Sequence record: SRR31156797_4827
Length of the DNA stretch: 64,000 nt
Direction: 5' to 3' (one strand)
Position numbers and translations under genes: made by a program
The notes under the pieces: model-generated
What the model saw: the letters and a program-made list of their open reading frames with translations, nothing else
The model's database searches: none
Told to the model about the DNA's origin: nothing
Shown here: positions 11,955-37,010 of the stretch, piece by piece
How the letters are laid out: every line of letters starts with the position of its first letter
Numbering within the stretch: position 1 is the stretch's first letter

Positions 11955-12598
11955 TGGCGATCTTAAATGTCAATCCAACTCGGATGGAACTAAGTCGTTT
12001 GAAAAAACGGCTGACGACGGCAACCCGTGGTCACAAATTATTGAAAGACAAGCAAGATGAGCTGGTGCGCCAATTCATTCAGCTAGTAAAGAAAAACCAG
12101 AAGCTTCGTAAAAAAATGGAAACTGCGCTGCAAGCAGGGATGGAAGAGTATGTGCTGGCTTCTAGTAGTATTCCCGATGTCGTTTTGCAAGAAGCATTTA
12201 TGATCCCTTTAAATAAAGTGACCCTAGATGTACAAAGTCGGACCATCATGAATATGGATGTGCCAGTGTTAAATCCTGTTTACGAAGAAGAGAGCTCCGA
12301 TGATGACTTTTCCTACGGTTTTGTAAGTACCACCAGTGAGCTGGATCTCTCGTTGTCTCATCTTGATCAGATGCTGCCAGTGATGCTTCAGTTGGCCGAA
12401 ATCGAGAAAACCTGTCAACTGATGGCCAATGAGATCGAGCGGACGAGGCGAAGAGTCAATGCGTTAGAGTATATGACGATTCCCAAGCTGACGGAAACCA
12501 TTCAATACATCGAAAGCAATCTGGCAGAAGACGAACGAGCAACATTGACCCGCTTGATGAAGGTCACAGATATCATTGCGGAAAATGAAGCAAAGTAA
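11954..12598 (+). CDS. ntpD: V-type ATPase subunit D
   Basis: NVNPTRMEL, RGHKLLKDKQDEL, TRRRVNALEY. Confidence 0.96.
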   Translation: MAILNVNPTRMELSRLKKRLTTATRGHKLLKDKQDELVRQFIQLVKKNQKLRKKMETALQAGMEEYVLASSSIPDVVLQEAFMIPLNKVTLDVQSRTIMNMDVPVLNPVYEEESSDDDFSYGFVSTTSELDLSLSHLDQMLPVMLQLAEIEKTCQLMANEIERTRRRVNALEYMTIPKLTETIQYIESNLAEDERATLTRLMKVTDIIAENEAK

Positions 12599-12625
12599 GG
12601 ATTTTGCCAATCATTTGGAAGAATC

Positions 12626-12668
12626 AAAAAAGGCACGTAGAAGGGGGTTCCTTTCTACGTGTCTTTTT
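12626..12668. terminator. Bidirectional terminator between ntpD and the ABC ATPase
   Basis: AAAAAGGCACGTAGAAGG / CCTTTCTACGTGTCTTTTT inverted repeat between convergent genes. Confidence 0.8.
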
Positions 12669-12673
12669 GCTTG

Positions 12674-13480
12674 TTAAGAGCGTAAGAGCAGTTGGTCATC
12701 TTTTAATTCAGCACCGCTATTTTGATGGAACATTTCCATCAATTCAGGGACGGTTAAATGTTGCTTTTGCTCACCGGCAATATCCACGACGATCTTGCCT
12801 TGATGAAGCATGATCAGGCGATTGCCATAGCGAATGGCATCTTCCATATCATGAGTAACCATGAAGGCCGTCAACTGCTGTGAACGAATCAATTGATCGG
12901 TCAATGCCATGACAGTCAACGAGGTTTTTGGATCTAGGGCAGCGGTATGTTCATCTAATAAAATCAATTTAGGTTGTTGCAACGTTGCCATCAAGAGGGT
13001 AATCGCTTGACGCTGTCCGCCTGATAACAAACCGATCTCGGCAGAAAGACGATTTTCTAAGCCTAAGTTTAGACTGGCTAATTTTTCTTGGAAAAACGCG
13101 CGATTTTTTGCTTTGACGCCTGTCGCAAACCCTCGGACTTGGCCCCGTTTGTAAGCAAGTGCTAAGTTTTCTTCAACAGTCAAACGAACCGCTGTCCCCA
13201 TACGTGGATCTTGAAAGACTCGGCTAATATCCTTTGAGCGTTTCGTAACGGATAAACGGGTGATGTCTTTCCCATCTAAGGTGATTTTTCCTTGTTCTGT
13301 TGGGATCGTTCCTGCAATACTGTTTAAAAGGGTCGATTTTCCGGCACCATTGCCACCGATGATCGTGATAAAATCTCCGGCATTCATCGTCAGGTCAATG
13401 CCTCGCAAGACATGGTTCTCATTGATCGTCCCTTTTTCAAAGGTTTGGTGTAGATTTTCGATTGTTAAGACTGAAGTCAT
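12674..13480 (-). CDS. ABC transporter ATP-binding protein (TrpZ-like amino-acid importer)
   Basis: GGNGAGKST, VFQDPRMGTA, LSGGQRQA, LLDEHTAALDP. Confidence 0.9.
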   Translation of the reverse strand: MTSVLTIENLHQTFEKGTINENHVLRGIDLTMNAGDFITIIGGNGAGKSTLLNSIAGTIPTEQGKITLDGKDITRLSVTKRSKDISRVFQDPRMGTAVRLTVEENLALAYKRGQVRGFATGVKAKNRAFFQEKLASLNLGLENRLSAEIGLLSGGQRQAITLLMATLQQPKLILLDEHTAALDPKTSLTVMALTDQLIRSQQLTAFMVTHDMEDAIRYGNRLIMLHQGKIVVDIAGEQKQHLTVPELMEMFHQNSGAELKDDQLLLRS

Positions 13481-14400
13481 TAGGATTGGCCTCCTTTGGT
13501 TTTTGGCAGCATCTTTTTAAGTCCTAGTTTTGAACGAAGCTGCGGTAACGAGAGGCAGATGACTAAGACGATTGCGGATGCCAGTTTGATATCATTGGCT
13601 TCGACATTGAACTCGAAAACGACGGCCAGGATAAAGCGATAAACGATCGCTCCAATCACGATGGTGATCAACCGCAAAAGCAAAGATTTATTGGCAAATA
13701 AAACTTCTGCAATAATGATCGATGCTAAGCCAATCACGATCGTACCGATTCCGGAGTTTAGGTCAGCAAAACCGTTGTTTTGGGCTAAAAGAGCACCTGA
13801 AAGGGCGATACAGCCGTTAGAGATCATGTAACCGATGATCTTCATATTATCGGTGTTGATGCCGTTGGCTTCACTCATAGCTAAATTATCGCCTGTTGCG
13901 CGCAATGCTAAGCCGATCTCTGTACGGAAAAAGAGGAACAAGCACAAAATGACGATAGCTGCGAAGAGAAAGCCCGCAAGAATCACGGCATTGTTTTTGG
14001 TCAGACCCATTGCTTGAAATTGGGTGAAGACCGTGTCTTGTCCTAACAAGGCAATGTTGGGAGCACCCATCACACGATTTGTGATGGAATAAAGCCCAGT
14101 CATCGTGATGATCCCGGCCAACAAGGCTGGGATCTTTAGTTTTGTATGCAGTAGTCCGGATACCAAGCCGGCTAACATGCCACCGCCAAAGCCCATCAAA
14201 CTGGCTAGTATGGGGGAGACGCCATTCGTAATACTGATTGCAGCGATCCCTGCACCTAATGGAAAACTTCCTTCTGCAGTTAAATCAGCGATATCCAGAA
14301 TACGGAAGGTCAAAAATACTCCGATTGCCAGCAATGCCCAAAGGATCCCTTGAGAGGTGGCAGATTGTAGTAATAGTAAGAACGTGTCGACTAAATTCAT
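13480..14400 (-). CDS. ABC transporter permease (TrpY-like, BPD_transp_2 type)
   Basis: FRILDIADLTAEGSFPLG, GLALRATGDN, GTIVIGLASIII. Confidence 0.9.
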   Translation of the reverse strand: MNLVDTFLLLLQSATSQGILWALLAIGVFLTFRILDIADLTAEGSFPLGAGIAAISITNGVSPILASLMGFGGGMLAGLVSGLLHTKLKIPALLAGIITMTGLYSITNRVMGAPNIALLGQDTVFTQFQAMGLTKNNAVILAGFLFAAIVILCLFLFFRTEIGLALRATGDNLAMSEANGINTDNMKIIGYMISNGCIALSGALLAQNNGFADLNSGIGTIVIGLASIIIAEVLFANKSLLLRLITIVIGAIVYRFILAVVFEFNVEANDIKLASAIVLVICLSLPQLRSKLGLKKMLPKTKGGQS

Positions 14401-14429
14401 ATGATTTCCTCAAATCTAAAATAGTATGG

Positions 14430-15407
14430 TTATTCTGGGGCAGTGATGCTGGCAGGATCAATCCCTAAAGCTGCAGCCATTTCTTCATTGACGACTAACT
14501 CTAAATTCTCCGCTGTTTCAACGGGTGTGGTAGCTGGTTCTGCATCGCCATCTAAAATTTTTGCTGCTAGTTTTCCTGTTTGAATGCCTAGTGATTTATA
14601 GTCAATACCATAAGTTGCTAGAGCTCCATCATCGACTTGTTCCACGGAACCTGCGACGATCGGTGTTTTGGTTTCTTTCGCCACTTCACCGACGATTGCA
14701 GCAGCAGAGGCAAAGGTATTATCTGTTGGAATATAAATGCCATCGACATCTTTTGCCAGGCTAGTGGTCACTTGCTGCACATCATTGGTGGTATTGGCGG
14801 TCAATACTTTAACGTCGACTCCAGCAGCTTTTAAGGCTTCTTCTGCCAAGTCTGCTTGAATTTTCGAGTTAGCTTCACCTGCATTATACATAATGCCGAT
14901 CGTCTTGGCGTCAGGGACGATGCTTAACAGCAAATTGATCTGCTGCTCAATGGGTACCATGTCTGACGTACCGGTGATGTTGCGACCGGGTTCTTCATTT
15001 GAGTCGGCTAATTTTGCCCCAACTAAGTCAGTAACTGCGGTAACCACGATTGGGGTATCAGTGGTTTCATTTGCTAACGAAACAGCAGCAGGCGTAGCGA
15101 TGCCCAATAAAAGATCAGGGTTGGCATTCACTAGGCGTTCGCTCATACTTTTTAAGTTGTCTTGACTGTTTTGCGCATTTTGGTATTCGATCATCAGGTT
15201 TTCACCTTCTGTGTAGCCCGCTTCTGCTAAGCCTTCTTTAAATCCTTCGTAGGCGGCATTCAAGGAGCCATGTTCCACGAGTTGCAAGACACCGACTGTT
15301 TTTGATCCGTCGTTTCCCTCAGAAGCATTGTTTGATTCCCCACAAGCTGCCAGTGCCAGTAGTGAAGCCGTTAATAATCCAGTTGTGATCCATTTTTTCA
15401 TTTTCAT
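14430..15407 (-). CDS. ABC substrate-binding lipoprotein (TrpX-like, aromatic amino-acid binding family)
   Basis: Lipobox LAAC; QLVEHGSL, IATPAA, TAVTD, NITGTSD, YIPTDN. Confidence 0.88.
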   Translation of the reverse strand: MKMKKWITTGLLTASLLALAACGESNNASEGNDGSKTVGVLQLVEHGSLNAAYEGFKEGLAEAGYTEGENLMIEYQNAQNSQDNLKSMSERLVNANPDLLLGIATPAAVSLANETTDTPIVVTAVTDLVGAKLADSNEEPGRNITGTSDMVPIEQQINLLLSIVPDAKTIGIMYNAGEANSKIQADLAEEALKAAGVDVKVLTANTTNDVQQVTTSLAKDVDGIYIPTDNTFASAAAIVGEVAKETKTPIVAGSVEQVDDGALATYGIDYKSLGIQTGKLAAKILDGDAEPATTPVETAENLELVVNEEMAAALGIDPASITAPE

Positions 15408-15456
15408 TGTAACTCCTCCTATAAACGTTTCTTTTTTAATTGGGGTTTACCTGAAC

Positions 15457-15491
15457 AAAAAAATCCATTCAGACAATCGTCTAAATGGATT
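15457..15491 (-). terminator. Attenuator terminator in the ABC importer leader
   Basis: Minus strand reads AATCCATTTAGAC-GATT-GTCTGAATGGATT then a T run, about 50 nt before the first ABC gene and downstream of its promoter. Confidence 0.8.
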
Positions 15492-15639
15492 CGATCCTAT
15501 ACCAAGCGTAAACGTATATTGGCAACCATTTAGAAGATTTTCTACATGGCTGCAAGTTCAAGTTAAAATGCTTTAGCCATCATAGATACAAACAAAACTC
15601 GTTTTGCGGTTTGCATCCATAATGTGTTATGAATACAAA

Positions 15640-15699
15640 CTATCTAAAGTAGCTAAAGTAAAAGATATTCAGTTGTGGGGACACGGTCGTTTTTAACAT
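15640..15699 (-). CDS. Phe/Tyr-rich leader peptide MLKTTVSPQLNIFYFSYFR (19 aa)
   Basis: Translated by hand. GGAGG lies 9 nt upstream of the ATG; 5 aromatic codons in the 6 before the final Arg; lies between the promoter and the terminator. Confidence 0.8.
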   Translation of the reverse strand: MLKTTVSPQLNIFYFSYFR

Positions 15700-15730
15700 A
15701 AAAAAGTTCCTCCATACTTGAATTGTTTTT

Positions 15731-15786
15731 AGTATAGACAAAAAAAAGCGGACTGTCAAATGTTTTTCCTGAATTATCTGAAAATT
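15731..15786 (-). promoter_or_regulatory. SigA promoter with adjacent CodY box for the ABC importer operon
   Basis: TTGACA (15759-15754), 17 nt, TATACT (15736-15731). AATTATCTGAAAATT (15772-15786) has 1 mismatch to AATTTTCWGAAAATT. Confidence 0.8.
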
Positions 15787-15907
15787 TTTGAATAACAATC
15801 AGAAAAAGTCTGAAAAAGATGCTTTGTTTCAACAAATTAAAAAGAAAGAAAAAAACTTTGTTTCATCAAGCTTTCTTGCTTGAAAATAAACAAAGTTTTT
15901 CTAAACA

Positions 15908-17068
15908 TCACTCGTTTTCTTCTTTATAATAACGAATGGTATTTTTGATTTCACGAATACTGTAAAGCAGATCATCCTCAAAGGATTGATCTTGATCAAT
16001 ATCGATGGTCTCATTGAACATTGCTTCGTATTCAGCGATCGTTAGTTTTTGACGGGCATCAAGTAACGTTTGGTGAGCAGCTTGTGCTAACTGTTTTTCA
16101 TAACCGGGTACCAATACGCCGCTGAAAAATTCAGCAACCGCTCCTGAGCCGTAACTAAACAGTCCTATCCGATCATTGGCTTGCAAGCTGGAGGAATTTT
16201 CTAATAAAGAGATCAAGCCTAGGTACAATGAACCCGTATACAAGTTGCCGGTCCGACGACTGTAAACGATCGATTCTTCATAGCGAGCCATCAGGCGTTC
16301 TTGTTGCGTTTCTTCTTCTTCGGCAAAAACAGCCAATAAGGCTTTTTTTCCCATTTTTGTATAAGGAATATGGAAACTCAATGCAGCGTAATCTTTTGCT
16401 GTGCGTTGCGTTTTTTCGCAATGGGCTTGCCAAACTTGTTTAAAGGAATCGATATAGACGGCATTTGACAAGTGGCCATCTACCATTGGATATTGATGAC
16501 CAACGGGACGCCAAAAATCATAAATGTCTTGCGTCAACATCAAATTATCGTTATCCAACTGCAAAATCGCTGGATCTGCAGAGATCAGCATAGCAACTGC
16601 ACCTACGCCTTGAGTGGGCTCTCCACCGGAAGCTAAGCCATACCGGGCGATGTCTGAAGCCACCACCAAAACTTTGCTTTTTGGATTGGCTTGTACGTGG
16701 GCTTTAGCAAACTGTAAGCCTGCTGTTGCGCCATAACACGCTTCTTTGATTTCAAAGGAGCGGGCAAATGGTTGAATACCCAATAGGCGATGCAAAACCA
16801 CTGCCGAAGCCTTTGATTCATCGATGCCGGATTCTGTGCCGACGATCACCATATCAATTGCTTGTAAATCTTCTTTTGTGAGGATATCTTTTGCCGCATG
16901 CATGGCAAAGGTGACGATATCTTGCGTTTTTTTATTGACCGCCATTTGATCTTGACCGATCCCGATCGTAAATTTATTTGGGTCGACCTCTCGGGCGTGA
17001 GCTAGATCAACCATATCTATAAAATAGGGGGGGACATAAAAATTTATTTTATCAATACCAACGTTCAT
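15908..17068 (-). CDS. mvaS: HMG-CoA synthase
   Basis: GTESGID, EIKEACYGATAG, FHIPYTKMGKK, GNLYTGSL, SYGSG. Confidence 0.97.
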   Translation of the reverse strand: MNVGIDKINFYVPPYFIDMVDLAHAREVDPNKFTIGIGQDQMAVNKKTQDIVTFAMHAAKDILTKEDLQAIDMVIVGTESGIDESKASAVVLHRLLGIQPFARSFEIKEACYGATAGLQFAKAHVQANPKSKVLVVASDIARYGLASGGEPTQGVGAVAMLISADPAILQLDNDNLMLTQDIYDFWRPVGHQYPMVDGHLSNAVYIDSFKQVWQAHCEKTQRTAKDYAALSFHIPYTKMGKKALLAVFAEEEETQQERLMARYEESIVYSRRTGNLYTGSLYLGLISLLENSSSLQANDRIGLFSYGSGAVAEFFSGVLVPGYEKQLAQAAHQTLLDARQKLTIAEYEAMFNETIDIDQDQSFEDDLLYSIREIKNTIRYYKEENE

Positions 17069-17260
17069 TCTGTCGCTCCTTTATGTTCTACGTACTTAGT
17101 AGGCTACACGTTCTAAGGTATCATATTTTTTGAAAAAAATGAAAAAGAATTGATTAGAATTTAAACTTTATTAAAGAAAGTAGAAAAGGGCACAGCAAGC
17201 TGATGTGGGGTATTCTTTTTTGGAGGATTTAATGATATATTTCAAGAGGAGGTGACGTAC

Positions 17261-19735
17261 GTGGAAGAAGTTGTCATTATCGACGCACTAAGAACGCCAA
17301 TTGGCAAATACCATGGGTCATTAAAAGAATATTCAGCAGTAGAATTAGGAACAATTGCTGCGAAAGCCTTGTTGGCAAGAAACCAACAAGCAAAAGAACA
17401 TATCGCACAAGTGATTATCGGAAATGTCCTGCAAGCAGGCAGTGGGCAAAATCCAAGTCGCCAAGTTTCCCTGCAAAGTGGGCTTTCTTCAGATATTCCA
17501 GCCTCAACGATCAACGAAGTTTGCGGTTCGGGAATGAAAGCGATTCTAATGGGCATGGAGCAAATTCAGTTAAACAAGGCATCAGTCGTCTTGACTGGTG
17601 GGATCGAAAGTATGACGAATGCGCCGCTATTCAGTTATTATAACAAGGCGGATGATCAGTATTCAAATCCAGTATCAACAATGATGCATGATGGCTTAAC
17701 AGACGCTTTTAGTAGCAAACCGATGGGCTTAACGGCTGAGACTGTTGCAGAAAGATATGGCATCACTCGACAAGAACAAGATGAATTTGCCTACCACTCC
17801 CAAATGAAGGCTGCCAAAGCACAAGCGGAAAAGAAATTTGAGCAAGAGATCGTACCCGTGACCGAAAAGTCTGCTACCGTTTCCCAGGATGAAGGCATTC
17901 GCGCCGCTACGACAGTCGAAAAATTAGCTGAACTAAAAACGGTTTTCAAAAAGGACGGTACGGTGACTGCTGGGAATGCCTCAACCATCAATGATGGGGC
18001 TGCCATGGTCTTGATCGCCTCAAAAAGCTATTGTGAGGAGCATCAGATTCCTTATCTGGCAGTGATCAAAGAGATCGTTGAAGTTGGCTTTGCCCCAGAG
18101 ATCATGGGAATCTCACCAATCAAAGCAATCGATACTTTGCTGAAAAAGCAAGCACTGTCGATTGAAGACATCGGTATTTTTGAAATCAATGAAGCCTTTG
18201 CAGCTTCCTCGATCGTAGTAGAACGTGAACTTGGTTTGGATCCCAAGAAAGTCAACCGTTACGGTGGGGGCATTTCCCTTGGCCATGCGATTGGAGCAAC
18301 CGGTGCTCGGATCGCAACGACCGTCGCTTATCAGCTAAAAGACACACAAGAACGTTATGGGATCGCCTCTTTATGTGTCGGTGGCGGGTTAGGGCTAGCG
18401 ATGCTGTTAGAAAACTCTTCGGCGGCAGCAAGTCAAGCCGATTTTCATGAAGAGTCGGCATCAGAAAAAACAGAAAAAAAAAAGTTTTACGCCCTTACGC
18501 CTAACGAACGACTAACCTTTCTTGAAGCACAAGGGGCGATCACAGCAGCCGAATCCTTGGTTTTTCAAGAAATGGCATTAGACAAGGAAACTTCCAATCA
18601 CTTGATCGAAAACCAGATCAGTGAAGTGGAGATTCCCTTAGGTGTGGGGTTGAATCTGCAAGTGAATGGCAAGAGATACAATGTCCCGTTAGCCACAGAA
18701 GAACCTTCTGTGATTGCAGCGATGAGCAATGGAGCAAAAATGGCTGGGCCCATTACAACGACCAGTCAAGAACGTTTGCTTCGAGGCCAGATCGTCTTTA
18801 TGACTGTTCAGGACCCGGATGCCATTTTGGCAAAAGTCAACACAGAGCAAGCGGCGATTTTTGCAGTGGCGAACGCGGCGTATCCCTCGATCGTAAAACG
18901 CGGTGGGGGCTTACGACGAGTGATTAGTCGGAACTTCTCGCCAACAGAATCTGAATTAGCAACAGCCTATGTCTCAATCGATTTGTTGGTTGATGTCAAA
19001 GATGCCATGGGCGCCAACATCATCAATTCGATTTTAGAAGGAGTGGCCGACCTCTTTCGGAAGTGGTTCCCAGAAGAAGAAATTCTCTTTAGTATTTTAA
19101 GTAATCTTGCCACGGAATCGTTAGTAACAGCCACTTGCTCCGTGCCTTTTGACAAACTGAGCAAGATCGGAAAGGGTAGACAAGTTGCCGAAAAAATCGT
19201 TCATGCAGCTGATTTTGCCAAGATTGATCCATATCGTGCCGCCACCCATAACAAAGGGATCATGAATGGCGTTGAAGCGCTGATTTTGGCTACCGGAAAT
19301 GACACTCGCGCCGTTTCGGCAGCTTGTCATGGCTATGCTGCCCGTAATGGTCGCATGCAAGGGCTGACTTCTTGGAAAATAGTAGAAGACCGTTTGATTG
19401 GTAGTATCACACTTCCGTTGGCGATCGCCACAGTCGGGGGTGCCACAAAAGTATTGCCAAAAGCCCAAGCGGCGTTGGCTTTGACCGGTGTTGAAACGGC
19501 GAGTGAGTTAGCTTCGCTGGCGGCAAGTGTCGGGTTGGCTCAGAATCTGGCAGCTTTGCGGGCATTGGTTTCAGAAGGAATTCAGCAAGGCCATATGAGC
19601 ATGCAAGCCCGTTCATTAGCTATTTCAGTTGGGGCAAAAGGAACTGAGATCGATCAGCTGGCAGCTAAGCTGCGAGCGGCGAGTCAAATGAACCAAGAGC
19701 AAGCCCGTAAATTTTTAACAGAAATACGCAACTAA
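17261..19735 (+). CDS. mvaE: Bifunctional acetyl-CoA acetyltransferase / HMG-CoA reductase
   Basis: Thiolase motifs (NEVCGSG, NEAFAA, GHAIGATG, CVGGG) fused to class II reductase motifs (ATEEPSVIAA, DAMGAN, RAATHNKG). GTG 17261 follows GGAGGTG. Confidence 0.97.
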   Translation: MEEVVIIDALRTPIGKYHGSLKEYSAVELGTIAAKALLARNQQAKEHIAQVIIGNVLQAGSGQNPSRQVSLQSGLSSDIPASTINEVCGSGMKAILMGMEQIQLNKASVVLTGGIESMTNAPLFSYYNKADDQYSNPVSTMMHDGLTDAFSSKPMGLTAETVAERYGITRQEQDEFAYHSQMKAAKAQAEKKFEQEIVPVTEKSATVSQDEGIRAATTVEKLAELKTVFKKDGTVTAGNASTINDGAAMVLIASKSYCEEHQIPYLAVIKEIVEVGFAPEIMGISPIKAIDTLLKKQALSIEDIGIFEINEAFAASSIVVERELGLDPKKVNRYGGGISLGHAIGATGARIATTVAYQLKDTQERYGIASLCVGGGLGLAMLLENSSAAASQADFHEESASEKTEKKKFYALTPNERLTFLEAQGAITAAESLVFQEMALDKETSNHLIENQISEVEIPLGVGLNLQVNGKRYNVPLATEEPSVIAAMSNGAKMAGPITTTSQERLLRGQIVFMTVQDPDAILAKVNTEQAAIFAVANAAYPSIVKRGGGLRRVISRNFSPTESELATAYVSIDLLVDVKDAMGANIINSILEGVADLFRKWFPEEEILFSILSNLATESLVTATCSVPFDKLSKIGKGRQVAEKIVHAADFAKIDPYRAATHNKGIMNGVEALILATGNDTRAVSAACHGYAARNGRMQGLTSWKIVEDRLIGSITLPLAIATVGGATKVLPKAQAALALTGVETASELASLAASVGLAQNLAALRALVSEGIQQGHMSMQARSLAISVGAKGTEIDQLAAKLRAASQMNQEQARKFLTEIRN

Positions 19736-36778: not shown

Positions 36779-36859
36779 TTGAAAAGTATCTGAAAACGTA
36801 ACTATTGTTAATTTTTAGATTTTGTGTATAATAGAACATGTAATAAATAGAATAAAGGT

Positions 36860-36980
36860 TCGTCTTCAGGGGCAGGGTGCAATTCCCGACCGGTGGTTAT
36901 AGTCCACGACCTATTTCTTCGGAAATAGCTGAATCGGTGAAATTCCGATACCGACAGTACAGTCTGGATAAAGAAGATAG
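36860..36980 (+). ncRNA. FMN riboswitch (RFN element)
   Basis: TCTTCAGGGGCAGGGTGCAATTCCCGACCGGTGGTTATAGTCCACGA...GGTGAAATTCCGATACCGACAGTACAGTCTGGATAAAGAAGA upstream of a riboflavin transporter. Confidence 0.96.
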
Positions 36981-37010
36981 AGCGTATTTGATTTGCTTAT
37001 GGCTATTTCG

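Follow-up and report, generated by a model that had tools for sequence, protein, structure and literature searches.

The window analysed here, a stretch of 64,000 nucleotides (nt) from record SRR31156797_4827 whose numbering is used throughout, carries on its minus strand a leader of approximately 240 nt in front of the genes of an ATP-binding cassette (ABC) importer. We conclude that this leader is very probably a ribosome-mediated leader-peptide transcription attenuator, which senses the supply of charged Phe- and Tyr-transfer RNA (tRNA) and controls an importer of aromatic amino acids. A preliminary description of the window had proposed the core of this reading, namely a Phe/Tyr leader peptide, a relay of mutually exclusive hairpins and control of the importer, and the comparative evidence supports it: by comparison of related loci, the anatomy of the leader, its conservation, its reading frame and the match between its codons and the genes behind it are established. 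In our view, these data are best explained if the element in the window is one copy of a regulon whose leaders carry mixed, Phe-only or Tyr-only codons, and whose Trp-codon sibling is the catalogued trpB motif.

The proposed leader peptide and its sensor codons

The features of the leader, like the importer genes, all lie on the minus strand. A sigma-70-type promoter, TTGACA-17-TATACT (15731-15759), matches 11 of 12 consensus positions, with a CodY-box-like site located 5' of its -35 hexamer (15772-15786). By sequence reading, the Shine-Dalgarno (SD) sequence GGAGG (15709-15713) lies 9 nt 5' of an ATG at 15699, which opens an upstream open reading frame (uORF; 15640-15699) of 19 codons plus a TAG stop codon (15642-15640) encoding MLKTTVSPQLNIFYFSYFR. 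The 3' end of the uORF encodes F-Y-F-S-Y-F-R-stop, and its six sensor codons (F Y F S Y F) occupy 15646-15663. Between the uORF and the lipoprotein gene of the importer lies an intrinsic terminator (15492-15457), formed by a 14-bp stem (to 15461) and then a U run, and a second SD precedes the start of the lipoprotein gene at 15407. This gene encodes a substrate-binding protein predicted to bind Phe/Tyr (14430-15407; PF04392, Pfam E 1.2e-83), and is followed by the genes for an ABC permease (13480-14400; PF02653) and an ABC ATPase (12674-13480; PF00005). The promoter, the SD, the 19-codon uORF, the seven complementary segments and the terminator listed in the preliminary description are thus all present.

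The evidence that the uORF is maintained as a coding frame and would serve as a sensor comes from a comparative set of 79 fetched loci, which together with the window make 80 sequences. An ATG in frame with the aromatic codons is present in all of them. When the search was made blind to the frame, accepting any ATG with an SD-like word 4-14 nt 5' of it, a start was found in 76 of the 80 sequences; in all 76 there was an in-frame candidate, and two had an extra, out-of-frame one. Eight different spacings, of 36 to 63 nt, separate the ATG from the aromatic cluster, each of them a multiple of 3. The preliminary description had set the conservation of an F/Y-rich uORF in orthologues as a check, and the aromatic codons are indeed kept: Phe or Tyr occupies 4-5 of the six sensor codons in 71/71 distinct uORFs. 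Counted from an anchor TTT (the third sensor codon, 15657-15655), the positions -3, +6 and +9 nt are aromatic in all 71, and they vary by Phe/Tyr exchange or synonymously only. Outside the sensor codons, by comparison, Phe and Tyr account for just 17 of the 810 residues of the leader peptides. A second conserved stretch lies 5' of the sensor codons, where the Q-L-N codons (15675-15667 in the window) are near-invariant to the nucleotide level in most families; they recur in some Trp leaders and are missing from two whole families that retain the element.

The codons of the leader also agree with the proteins behind it. In some genomes, Phe-only (FFFSFF) and Tyr-only (YYVSYY, YYGYY) leaders precede paralogous binding-protein genes. 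The closest solved relatives of the binding protein in the window are 6hni (CD0873; E 1e-67, the closest), 3lkv and 3lft. In this group of proteins, CD0873 binds Tyr through the selectivity residues Glu-263 and Tyr-279, VC_1101 binds Phe with Ala-246 and Tyr-262, and SP1069 binds Trp with Ala-268 and Gln-284; a Tyr at the second of these positions keeps Trp out, and a Gln there accepts it (Bradshaw et al. 2019, PMC6816091). In the protein of the window, Tyr270 aligns with Tyr-279 of CD0873 and Tyr-262 of VC_1101, and Ser254 with Glu-263 and Ala-246, respectively. The preliminary assignment of Phe/Tyr rather than Trp as the substrate is therefore favoured by the presence of a predicted Trp-excluding residue, Tyr270. 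Across the loci, the second position is Gln in 16/16 binding proteins behind Trp-codon leaders and Tyr in 56/57 of those behind Phe/Tyr leaders, the remaining one being His; these proteins are kin, so the counts do not represent independent events. As judged from the alignments, the split at the second selectivity residue coincides with the split in the leader codons, Trp versus Phe/Tyr.

Two observations on the same proteins stand apart. The first selectivity residue was considered as a guide to Phe versus Tyr preference and discarded: it is Ser or Ala in all 57 proteins, unrelated to whether the leader is Phe-only or Tyr-only. In addition, two loci (L070 and L074) carry two leader copies approximately 1.4 kb apart, with tandem binding-protein genes each having its own leader, and in L074 a Phe-only leader is followed by a Tyr-only one. 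These tandem loci look like specialised Phe and Tyr uptake systems placed side by side.

TTGACA-17-TATACT is the best among 8 promoter-like sites in 12400-16100, and comparable TTGACA/TATACT hexamers are visible at related loci. In that region, neither promoter-like sites (8 versus 6.5 +/- 2.5 expected from shuffles) nor terminator-like sites (4 versus 3.5 +/- 2.5) exceed chance, so the case for the element rests on conservation and not on the site scan. The CodY-box-like word claimed in the preliminary description is present, with one mismatch to a 15-nt sequence that we take to be the CodY consensus; matches with two mismatches or fewer number 4 in the window versus 1.12 expected, and 34 of 78 distinct related upstream regions have one at -79 to -89 from the uORF ATG, compared with 0.4% of shuffles. 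From the conservation of this word at the promoter, an additional level of global control may be suspected.

Twenty-two public RNA runs contain the stretch, all as contigs, which are silent on transcript levels; four of them were compared with the locus. In two metatranscriptome runs, the contigs spanning the leader and the gene terminate at 15709 and 15690, with contigs of 3- to 20-fold lower depth upstream of these points; in a third run, the same place is bridged, and the fourth may be the source of the DNA itself. The contig ends at 15709 and 15690 hint weakly at a 5' end close to the promoter. One of these data sets also contains a 126-nt contig of depth 230 (run X2 record 4) that matches only the S3 region of the leader (15566-15600), with diverging flanks, and that is probably a paralogous or foreign leader copy highly represented in that metatranscriptome.

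Alternative pairings and the proposed mechanism

Downstream of the sensor codons, and overlapping them, the leader is built from eight segments (A and S1-S7). Segment A (15641-15656) lies within the final uORF codons and is the 5' strand of a helix, P1, which belongs to the consensus structure of the Rfam family of this leader (RF02863, see below) and was missed in the preliminary description. S1 (15629-15640) begins inside the stop codon and pairs with S2 (15609-15620), whose alternative partner is S3. S3 (15573-15593) is the hub of the structure, since it can pair with S2, with segment A as the 3' strand of P1, or with S4 (15541-15553), which in turn can choose S5. The pairing of S5 (15522-15534) with S4 would act as an anti-antiterminator and its pairing with S6 as an antiterminator; S6 (15479-15491), the 5' arm of the terminator, can pair with S5 or with S7 (15457-15474), the 3' arm plus the U run. 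The end of the uORF therefore overlaps the first pairing segments: the sensor codons fall within the 5' strand of P1, and S1 starts at the stop codon.

Each of the six neighbour pairings of the window folds as the preliminary description had it when folded in isolation. Compared with shuffles, strong values were obtained for 1:2 (-13.4 kcal/mol, z -6.5), 2:3 (-14.7 kcal/mol, z -3.8), 4:5 (-14.8 kcal/mol, z -6.1) and 6:7 (-16.2 kcal/mol, z -6.8), and weaker ones for 3:4 (-12.5 kcal/mol, z -1.9, equalled by 10/200 shuffles) and 5:6 (-13.2 kcal/mol, z -2.2, equalled by 6/200). In P1, the end of the uORF (15656-15641) pairs with 15588-15573 of S3 and encloses hairpin 1:2, and this domain folds at -25.8 kcal/mol (z -4.45). 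The preliminary description had claimed two mutually exclusive states, 1:2/3:4/5:6 for read-through and 2:3/4:5/6:7 for termination. The neighbour pairings on which the two states rest hold; to these, P1 adds a third partner for S3 and what would be a default termination state.

The pairings are also conserved. In an alignment of 63 Phe/Tyr-class sequences, controls in which the partners were slid by 1-3 columns were 25-55% paired; in reading this comparison it should be kept in mind that slid versions are commonly outscored by a structure taken from the very sequences examined, and that the sequences are very similar. The two halves of P1 are paired in 97.1% and 99.2% of the cells. For 1:2, 96.3% of the cells are paired and 5 pairs are altered on both sides; the corresponding figures are 95.1% (27-55% when slid) and 4 pairs for 2:3, 96.2% (25-52% when slid) and 3 pairs for 3:4, and 88.8% and 4 compensatory pairs for 4:5. 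Compensatory changes, which the preliminary description had proposed to look for, are thus found in 1:2, 2:3, 3:4 and 4:5, but P1 has none in this class; that they are few overall is explained by the sequences being very alike. The 5:6 duplex has a mean energy of -12.3 kcal/mol, versus -5.8 kcal/mol with a shuffled S6, and its z is below -2 in 53 of 68 distinct leaders. Three leaders with long loops (L057, L063 and L068) have a 5:6 no better than shuffles, and we infer that the fixed search window missed their S5. The terminal hairpin followed by a U run is present in 80/80 Phe/Tyr leaders. In the copies that precede biosynthesis genes, 4:5 itself precedes a U run, so that these leaders have two terminators in series, whereas in importer copies such as that of the window 4:5 is not followed by one.

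How would a stalled ribosome act on these pairings? In the proposed mechanism, transcription would start at the TTGACA/TATACT promoter, which probably also bears a CodY operator. Without a ribosome, or once it had been released, P1 would close around 1:2 and S3 would be locked; 4:5 and then 6:7 would form, and transcription would stop at approximately 15457. A ribosome reaching the stop codon would cover segment A and S1, and the formation of 2:3, 4:5 and 6:7 would again lead to termination. When charged tRNA is scarce, by contrast, a ribosome stalled on the Phe/Tyr codons would cover segment A and leave S1 free, allowing 1:2 to form; S3 would then take S4, S5 would take S6 before S7 had been made, and, no terminator being formed, the importer genes would be transcribed. 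The choice between these folds would be kinetic and co-transcriptional, not one of equilibrium. The additional 5:6/6:7 stage would let one event disarm a second terminator and, in the importer copies without a U run after 4:5, would shift the terminator downstream.

The decision point was modelled by folding transcripts cut just before S7, under the assumption of a ribosome footprint that ends 12 nt past the first base of the codon in the A site. With no ribosome, the mean share of S6 held upstream was 0.18, exceeding 0.5 in 10/76 leaders. With the A site on any of the first four aromatic codons the mean rose to 0.47-0.51 (above 0.5 in 41-45/76), and it was 0.34 (25/76) with the A site on the last Phe codon and 0.30 (22/76) with the ribosome at the stop codon. 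For the leader of the window, which is identical to that of locus L032, the share was 0.28 in the absence of a ribosome. It reached 0.43-0.56 when the second or third sensor codon occupied the A site, and stood at 0.26-0.28 when the fifth or sixth one, or the stop codon, did so. The direction of these modelled shifts agrees with the mechanism proposed, and their size is modest and dependent on the assumed footprint.

The proposed regulon and its Trp-codon sibling

Covariance-model searches were run on the whole window at the Rfam gathering cut-offs and, permissively, on 15350-15900 at E up to 10. The leader belongs to RF02863, Enterococcus small RNA (sRNA) sRNA_2410 (83.6 bits versus a cut-off of 61, E 3.6e-12), with a match that spans the full model, 1-196, at 15461-15656 on the minus strand. 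This family and a flavin mononucleotide (FMN) riboswitch are the only two gathering-level matches in the whole window. RF02863 was founded on a 195-nt RNA that RNA-seq revealed in E. faecium Aus0004 and that gave two transcripts in Northern blots (Sinel et al. 2017, PMC5593968); it is typed in Rfam as gene, sRNA, and the passages of that report dealing with sRNA_2410 assign it no function. Two transcripts are what would be expected of a terminated leader. The window element and RF02863 are the same RNA family, although the model omits both the leader peptide and the terminator: it begins 43 nt into the uORF and ends ahead of the final terminator hairpin, and these boundaries explain why the leader peptide was overlooked in the catalogue.

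The other catalogued leaders do not match. Among the 18 hits obtained in 15350-15900 at E up to 10 there was no T-box, and none was found in 20 related loci at E up to 0.01; the Rfam scan for a T-box that the preliminary description had called for was thus negative. The Leu/phe leader RF01743, Phe_leader and the other enterobacterial leader families gave no match in 15350-15900 at E up to 10, and neither RF01743 nor the enterobacterial families matched in the 20 related loci at E up to 0.01. The only other suggestive hit of the permissive search was RF04312, the trpB motif (29.4 bits, E 0.044, below the cut-off of 59), against which Phe/Tyr leaders located before chorismate synthase genes score up to 43 bits. 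By the curated threshold the window element is not a member of RF04312, yet from its sequence it looks homologous and appears to work alike.

The author of the preliminary description knew of no earlier account of the element in enterococci. The RNA is in fact catalogued, as the RF02863 sRNA; as an attenuator, no description of the family was found in searches of the full-text literature, whose coverage excluded older subscription papers on Gram-positive aromatic regulons and a T-box survey. In the main text of a survey of regulatory networks in lactic acid bacteria (PMC3616900), the terms attenuat-, leader, tryptophan, tyrosine, phenylalanine and T-box do not occur.

RF02863 is widespread. 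In the family of the window it was found in 130/134 genomes (121 over the cut-off), usually in two and up to six copies each. In a sample of the order it was present in 85/151 genomes, distributed by family as 20/20, 18/19, 14/19, 12/19, 6/18, 13/18, 2/18, 0/18 and 0/2, and in a sample of the class in 14/151, limited to families of the order plus one further family (4/4, with weak scores), in which one locus (L108) has a complete uORF, MKNQNVSLQLNQYYFSYFR, ahead of a binding-protein gene. A pattern scan with an AT-rich 17-mer, one genome per species, which provides examples and not a census, returned at least 120 stretches. Among the matches listed, 51 have the S1/S3 signature downstream, including named records of Streptococcus pneumoniae, S. 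mitis, S. parasanguinis, several Enterococcus and the clostridial Terrisporobacter muris; the remaining 69 lack it, look like chance hits and were set aside. The element is thus present across the order and in multiple copies, and is not an enterococcal oddity.

The genes behind the leaders define the proposed regulon. In 80/80 sequences the element is directly 5' of, and co-oriented with, the first long downstream open reading frame (ORF). After near-duplicates had been dropped, 44 of 78 downstream ORFs were scanned against Pfam: 29 encode a PF04392 binding protein, nine a shikimate dehydrogenase, three a 3-deoxy-D-arabino-heptulosonate 7-phosphate (DAHP) synthase, two a chorismate synthase and one a prephenate dehydratase. 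Among the genomes searched, the one nearest to the window has a second leader copy ahead of a shikimate dehydrogenase gene (L031). In two of the loci, L035 and L047, a shikimate-dehydrogenase-like frame 200-500 nt after the leader appears shortened or broken in comparison with sister loci, and the first long ORF encodes a DAHP synthase that carries a ferredoxin-like domain.

The trpB motif, of which more than 900 representatives are described, mostly before an uncharacterised ABC transporter, has been rated a strong candidate for a riboswitch by authors who could not rule out that it is a classic attenuator (Narunsky et al. 2024, PMC11109978). In our sample of the order, RF04312 was found in 90/151 genomes, with 26 over the cut-off, and its model and that of RF02863 match each other's loci below threshold. 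In 20/20 trpB-motif loci, the sequence immediately 5' of the Rfam model contains a uORF whose Trp codons occupy the position homologous to that of the Phe/Tyr codons. These uORFs end like ..W-Q-N-W-R-R, most loci having two Trp codons and three loci one, and the leaders precede membrane-anchored PF04392-like proteins or trpB. Over the same 20 sequences, the five helices recur but are built from different letters: P1 is 90% paired with 3 pairs altered on both sides, 1:2 is 87% paired with 3, 2:3 is 95.8% paired with 5, and 4:5 is 95.5% paired with 4; in L095, a GC-richer Trp leader, the words of S2, S3 and S4 change in concert.

The two classes of leader thus have in common the end of the uORF, S1, 2:3 with its inner hairpin, the S3:S4 antiterminator and 4:5, as well as sequence words and the PF04392 importers among the regulated genes, to which the Trp class adds trpB. 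They differ in several respects: the trpB motif has Trp codons (..W-x-x-W-R-R) instead of Phe/Tyr, its 4:5 is the terminator, the 5:6/6:7 relay is missing, and the published model does not include the uORF. Many Trp leaders (L080-L099) also have a second, unrelated-looking hairpin plus U run, approximately 20-120 nt past the 4:5 terminator and before the gene, in which no obvious complementarity to S5 was seen; this may be an independent second control point. In one genome (G001:C99), a Trp-class leader at 141544-141647 lies approximately 3 kb upstream of a Phe/Tyr leader at 138306-138496 that precedes a shikimate dehydrogenase gene, and five other genomes of the family have the same spacing, an arrangement consistent with a Trp-importer operon directly followed by an aromatic-synthesis operon.

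On this basis we lean towards a broader proposal, held with clearly less confidence than the attenuator itself: one ancestral attenuator scaffold would have been re-coded by codon swaps into Trp, mixed Phe/Tyr, Phe-only and Tyr-only sensors, each matched to the specificity of its importer or pathway, and would form the main aromatic regulon of lactic acid bacteria, reaching into the Clostridia. If this were true, the trpB-motif riboswitch candidate would be a leader-peptide attenuator and not a riboswitch, sRNA_2410 would be a terminated leader, the 5:6/6:7 stage would be a relay by which one stalled ribosome disarms two terminators in series, and the leader codons would label the substrate of each PF04392 transporter. 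There is a precedent in Corynebacterium, where a riboswitch candidate proved to be a uORF attenuator (PMC10272879).

Other features of the window were noted in addition. The 3-hydroxy-3-methylglutaryl-coenzyme A (HMG-CoA) synthase gene (15908-17068, minus strand) ends 5' of the leader promoter, and a fused thiolase/HMG-CoA reductase gene (17252-19735, plus strand) is divergent from it, which is a mevalonate pathway arrangement. The FMN riboswitch (RF00050) is located elsewhere, at 36858-36982 on the plus strand (101.6 bits versus a cut-off of 66.2).

Competing explanations and known systems

Several results weigh against the attenuator reading. When complete leaders are folded at equilibrium, the terminator appears whichever ribosome state is assumed (74-77/77, with the footprint masked), so the model requires kinetic, co-transcriptional control; a thermodynamic switch was dropped as an explanation, since masking the footprint never removed the terminator. 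A folding check of the kind proposed in the preliminary description (S1 forced unpaired or free), made here by masking the footprint, gave a divided answer, the cut folds shifting towards the antiterminator when the ribosome sits on the aromatic codons and the full-length equilibrium folds remaining unchanged. Even in the cut folds the effect is partial: approximately 40% of the leaders fail to switch, and the leader of the window rises from 0.26-0.28 to no more than 0.56. Its 3:4 and 5:6 pairings are only modestly better than shuffles, and in the Trp class 3:4 is only 80% paired (4 pairs altered on both sides), barely above shuffles; P1, as said, is without compensatory change in the Phe/Tyr class. 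The model leaves the very high nucleotide conservation unexplained, and neither pairing nor sensing accounts for the conserved Q-L-N codons. Four of the 80 leaders, from two families, have no clear SD but weak purine-rich words. Finally, the related sequences are kin, so that the counts overstate independent support, and the RNA contigs cannot reveal a 3' end at 15457.

Part of this evidence would suit other mechanisms. The very high nucleotide conservation with its many invariant columns, a P1 without covariation in the Phe/Tyr class and the rating given to the trpB sibling (PMC11109978) are what one would expect of a riboswitch, or of a protein-binding leader, that senses an aromatic compound or factor directly and in which the short ORF is incidental. 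An incidental ORF, however, should not stay open and in frame at eight lengths, nor should its sensor positions vary only among Phe/Tyr or synonymous codons, nor should the identity of the codons fit the selectivity residue of the binding protein in 72/73 cases; it can further be argued that the alternative pairings alone account for the conservation, because each segment has two or three partners, and the classic attenuator was left standing by the trpB-motif authors themselves (PMC11109978). We consider this explanation very unlikely. The same degree of doubt applies to the idea that the nascent peptide (..QLNNFYFSYFR) acts like TnaC and arrests the ribosome in response to a small molecule, be it free Phe/Tyr or some other compound, without tRNA charging being sensed. 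It would make sense of the conserved residues other than Phe/Tyr, namely Q-L-N upstream, which some Trp leaders share, and the Ser and Arg of the tail. The Ser and Arg codons, though, lie in helix P1, so RNA pairing explains their conservation, and Q-L-N is missing in the two whole families mentioned above; moreover, arrest by a free amino acid would activate importer and synthesis genes at plenty, and thus act in the wrong direction.

The 195-nt RNA might also be chiefly a trans-acting sRNA, as its Rfam type implies, its position before the importer being secondary; roles in trans exist for terminated leaders elsewhere among bacteria. It is certainly a discrete, abundant and Northern-validated RNA in E. 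faecium, up 2.3- to 4.1-fold under daptomycin (PMC5593968). Against this, in all 80 sequences the first long ORF follows the element directly and in the same orientation, the 44 downstream proteins scanned are without exception involved in aromatic transport or synthesis, and each of the 2-6 copies per genome precedes such a gene; a role in trans would in any case add to the role in cis and not replace it, and we regard the sRNA as a highly improbable substitute for attenuation. A divergent T-box leader reading uncharged tRNA directly would recall the T-box control of related PF04392 importers (trpX) in streptococci (PMC9382623), but a leader of this length without any T-box stem, and without a T-box match either in 15350-15900 or in the 20 related loci, makes this solution extremely unlikely.

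We thus retain the leader-peptide attenuator, whose consequences reach beyond the locus. In enterococci, in streptococci (including records of S. pneumoniae) and in their relatives, aromatic uptake and the shikimate pathway appear to be controlled by a system based on the ribosome that had escaped recognition. Functions can be offered for two catalogue entries, the sRNA of a hospital pathogen and an orphan riboswitch candidate, and the leader codons become a cheap predictor of transporter substrates, with solved structures supporting the split between Trp and Phe/Tyr. The architecture is unusual too, with a hub segment that has three alternative partners and a relay acting over one or two terminators.

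Leader-peptide attenuation is enterobacterial textbook material, and aromatic control in Firmicutes is thought to depend mainly on T-boxes and on TRAP. In pheL-pheA, pheM-pheST and trpL, cognate codons are concentrated in a short ORF, which overlaps the first in a series of alternative hairpins that end in an intrinsic terminator. The window element follows the same principle, but shows important differences: (i) there is no sequence or model match between them; (ii) the enterobacterial attenuators have four segments, whereas the window element has eight (A and S1-S7) and mixed Phe and Tyr codons; and (iii) it is found in Firmicutes and controls importers as well as synthesis genes. Within the same order, the Leu/phe leader of Lactococcus lactis (RF01743; Weinberg et al. 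2010, PMC2864571) is also a peptide-leader RNA. It is a separate family, matching neither the window nor the related loci. Some of its copies carry Phe codons before a transporter. A Firmicute precedent for the combination of CodY control at the promoter with an attenuator peptide, in that case leucine-rich, is provided by the ilv-leu operon of Staphylococcus aureus (PMC5794164), as described there for another amino acid, another RNA family and synthesis genes only. The mechanism proposed is the textbook one, and what is new is the architecture, the range of taxa and the function proposed for two catalogued RNAs.

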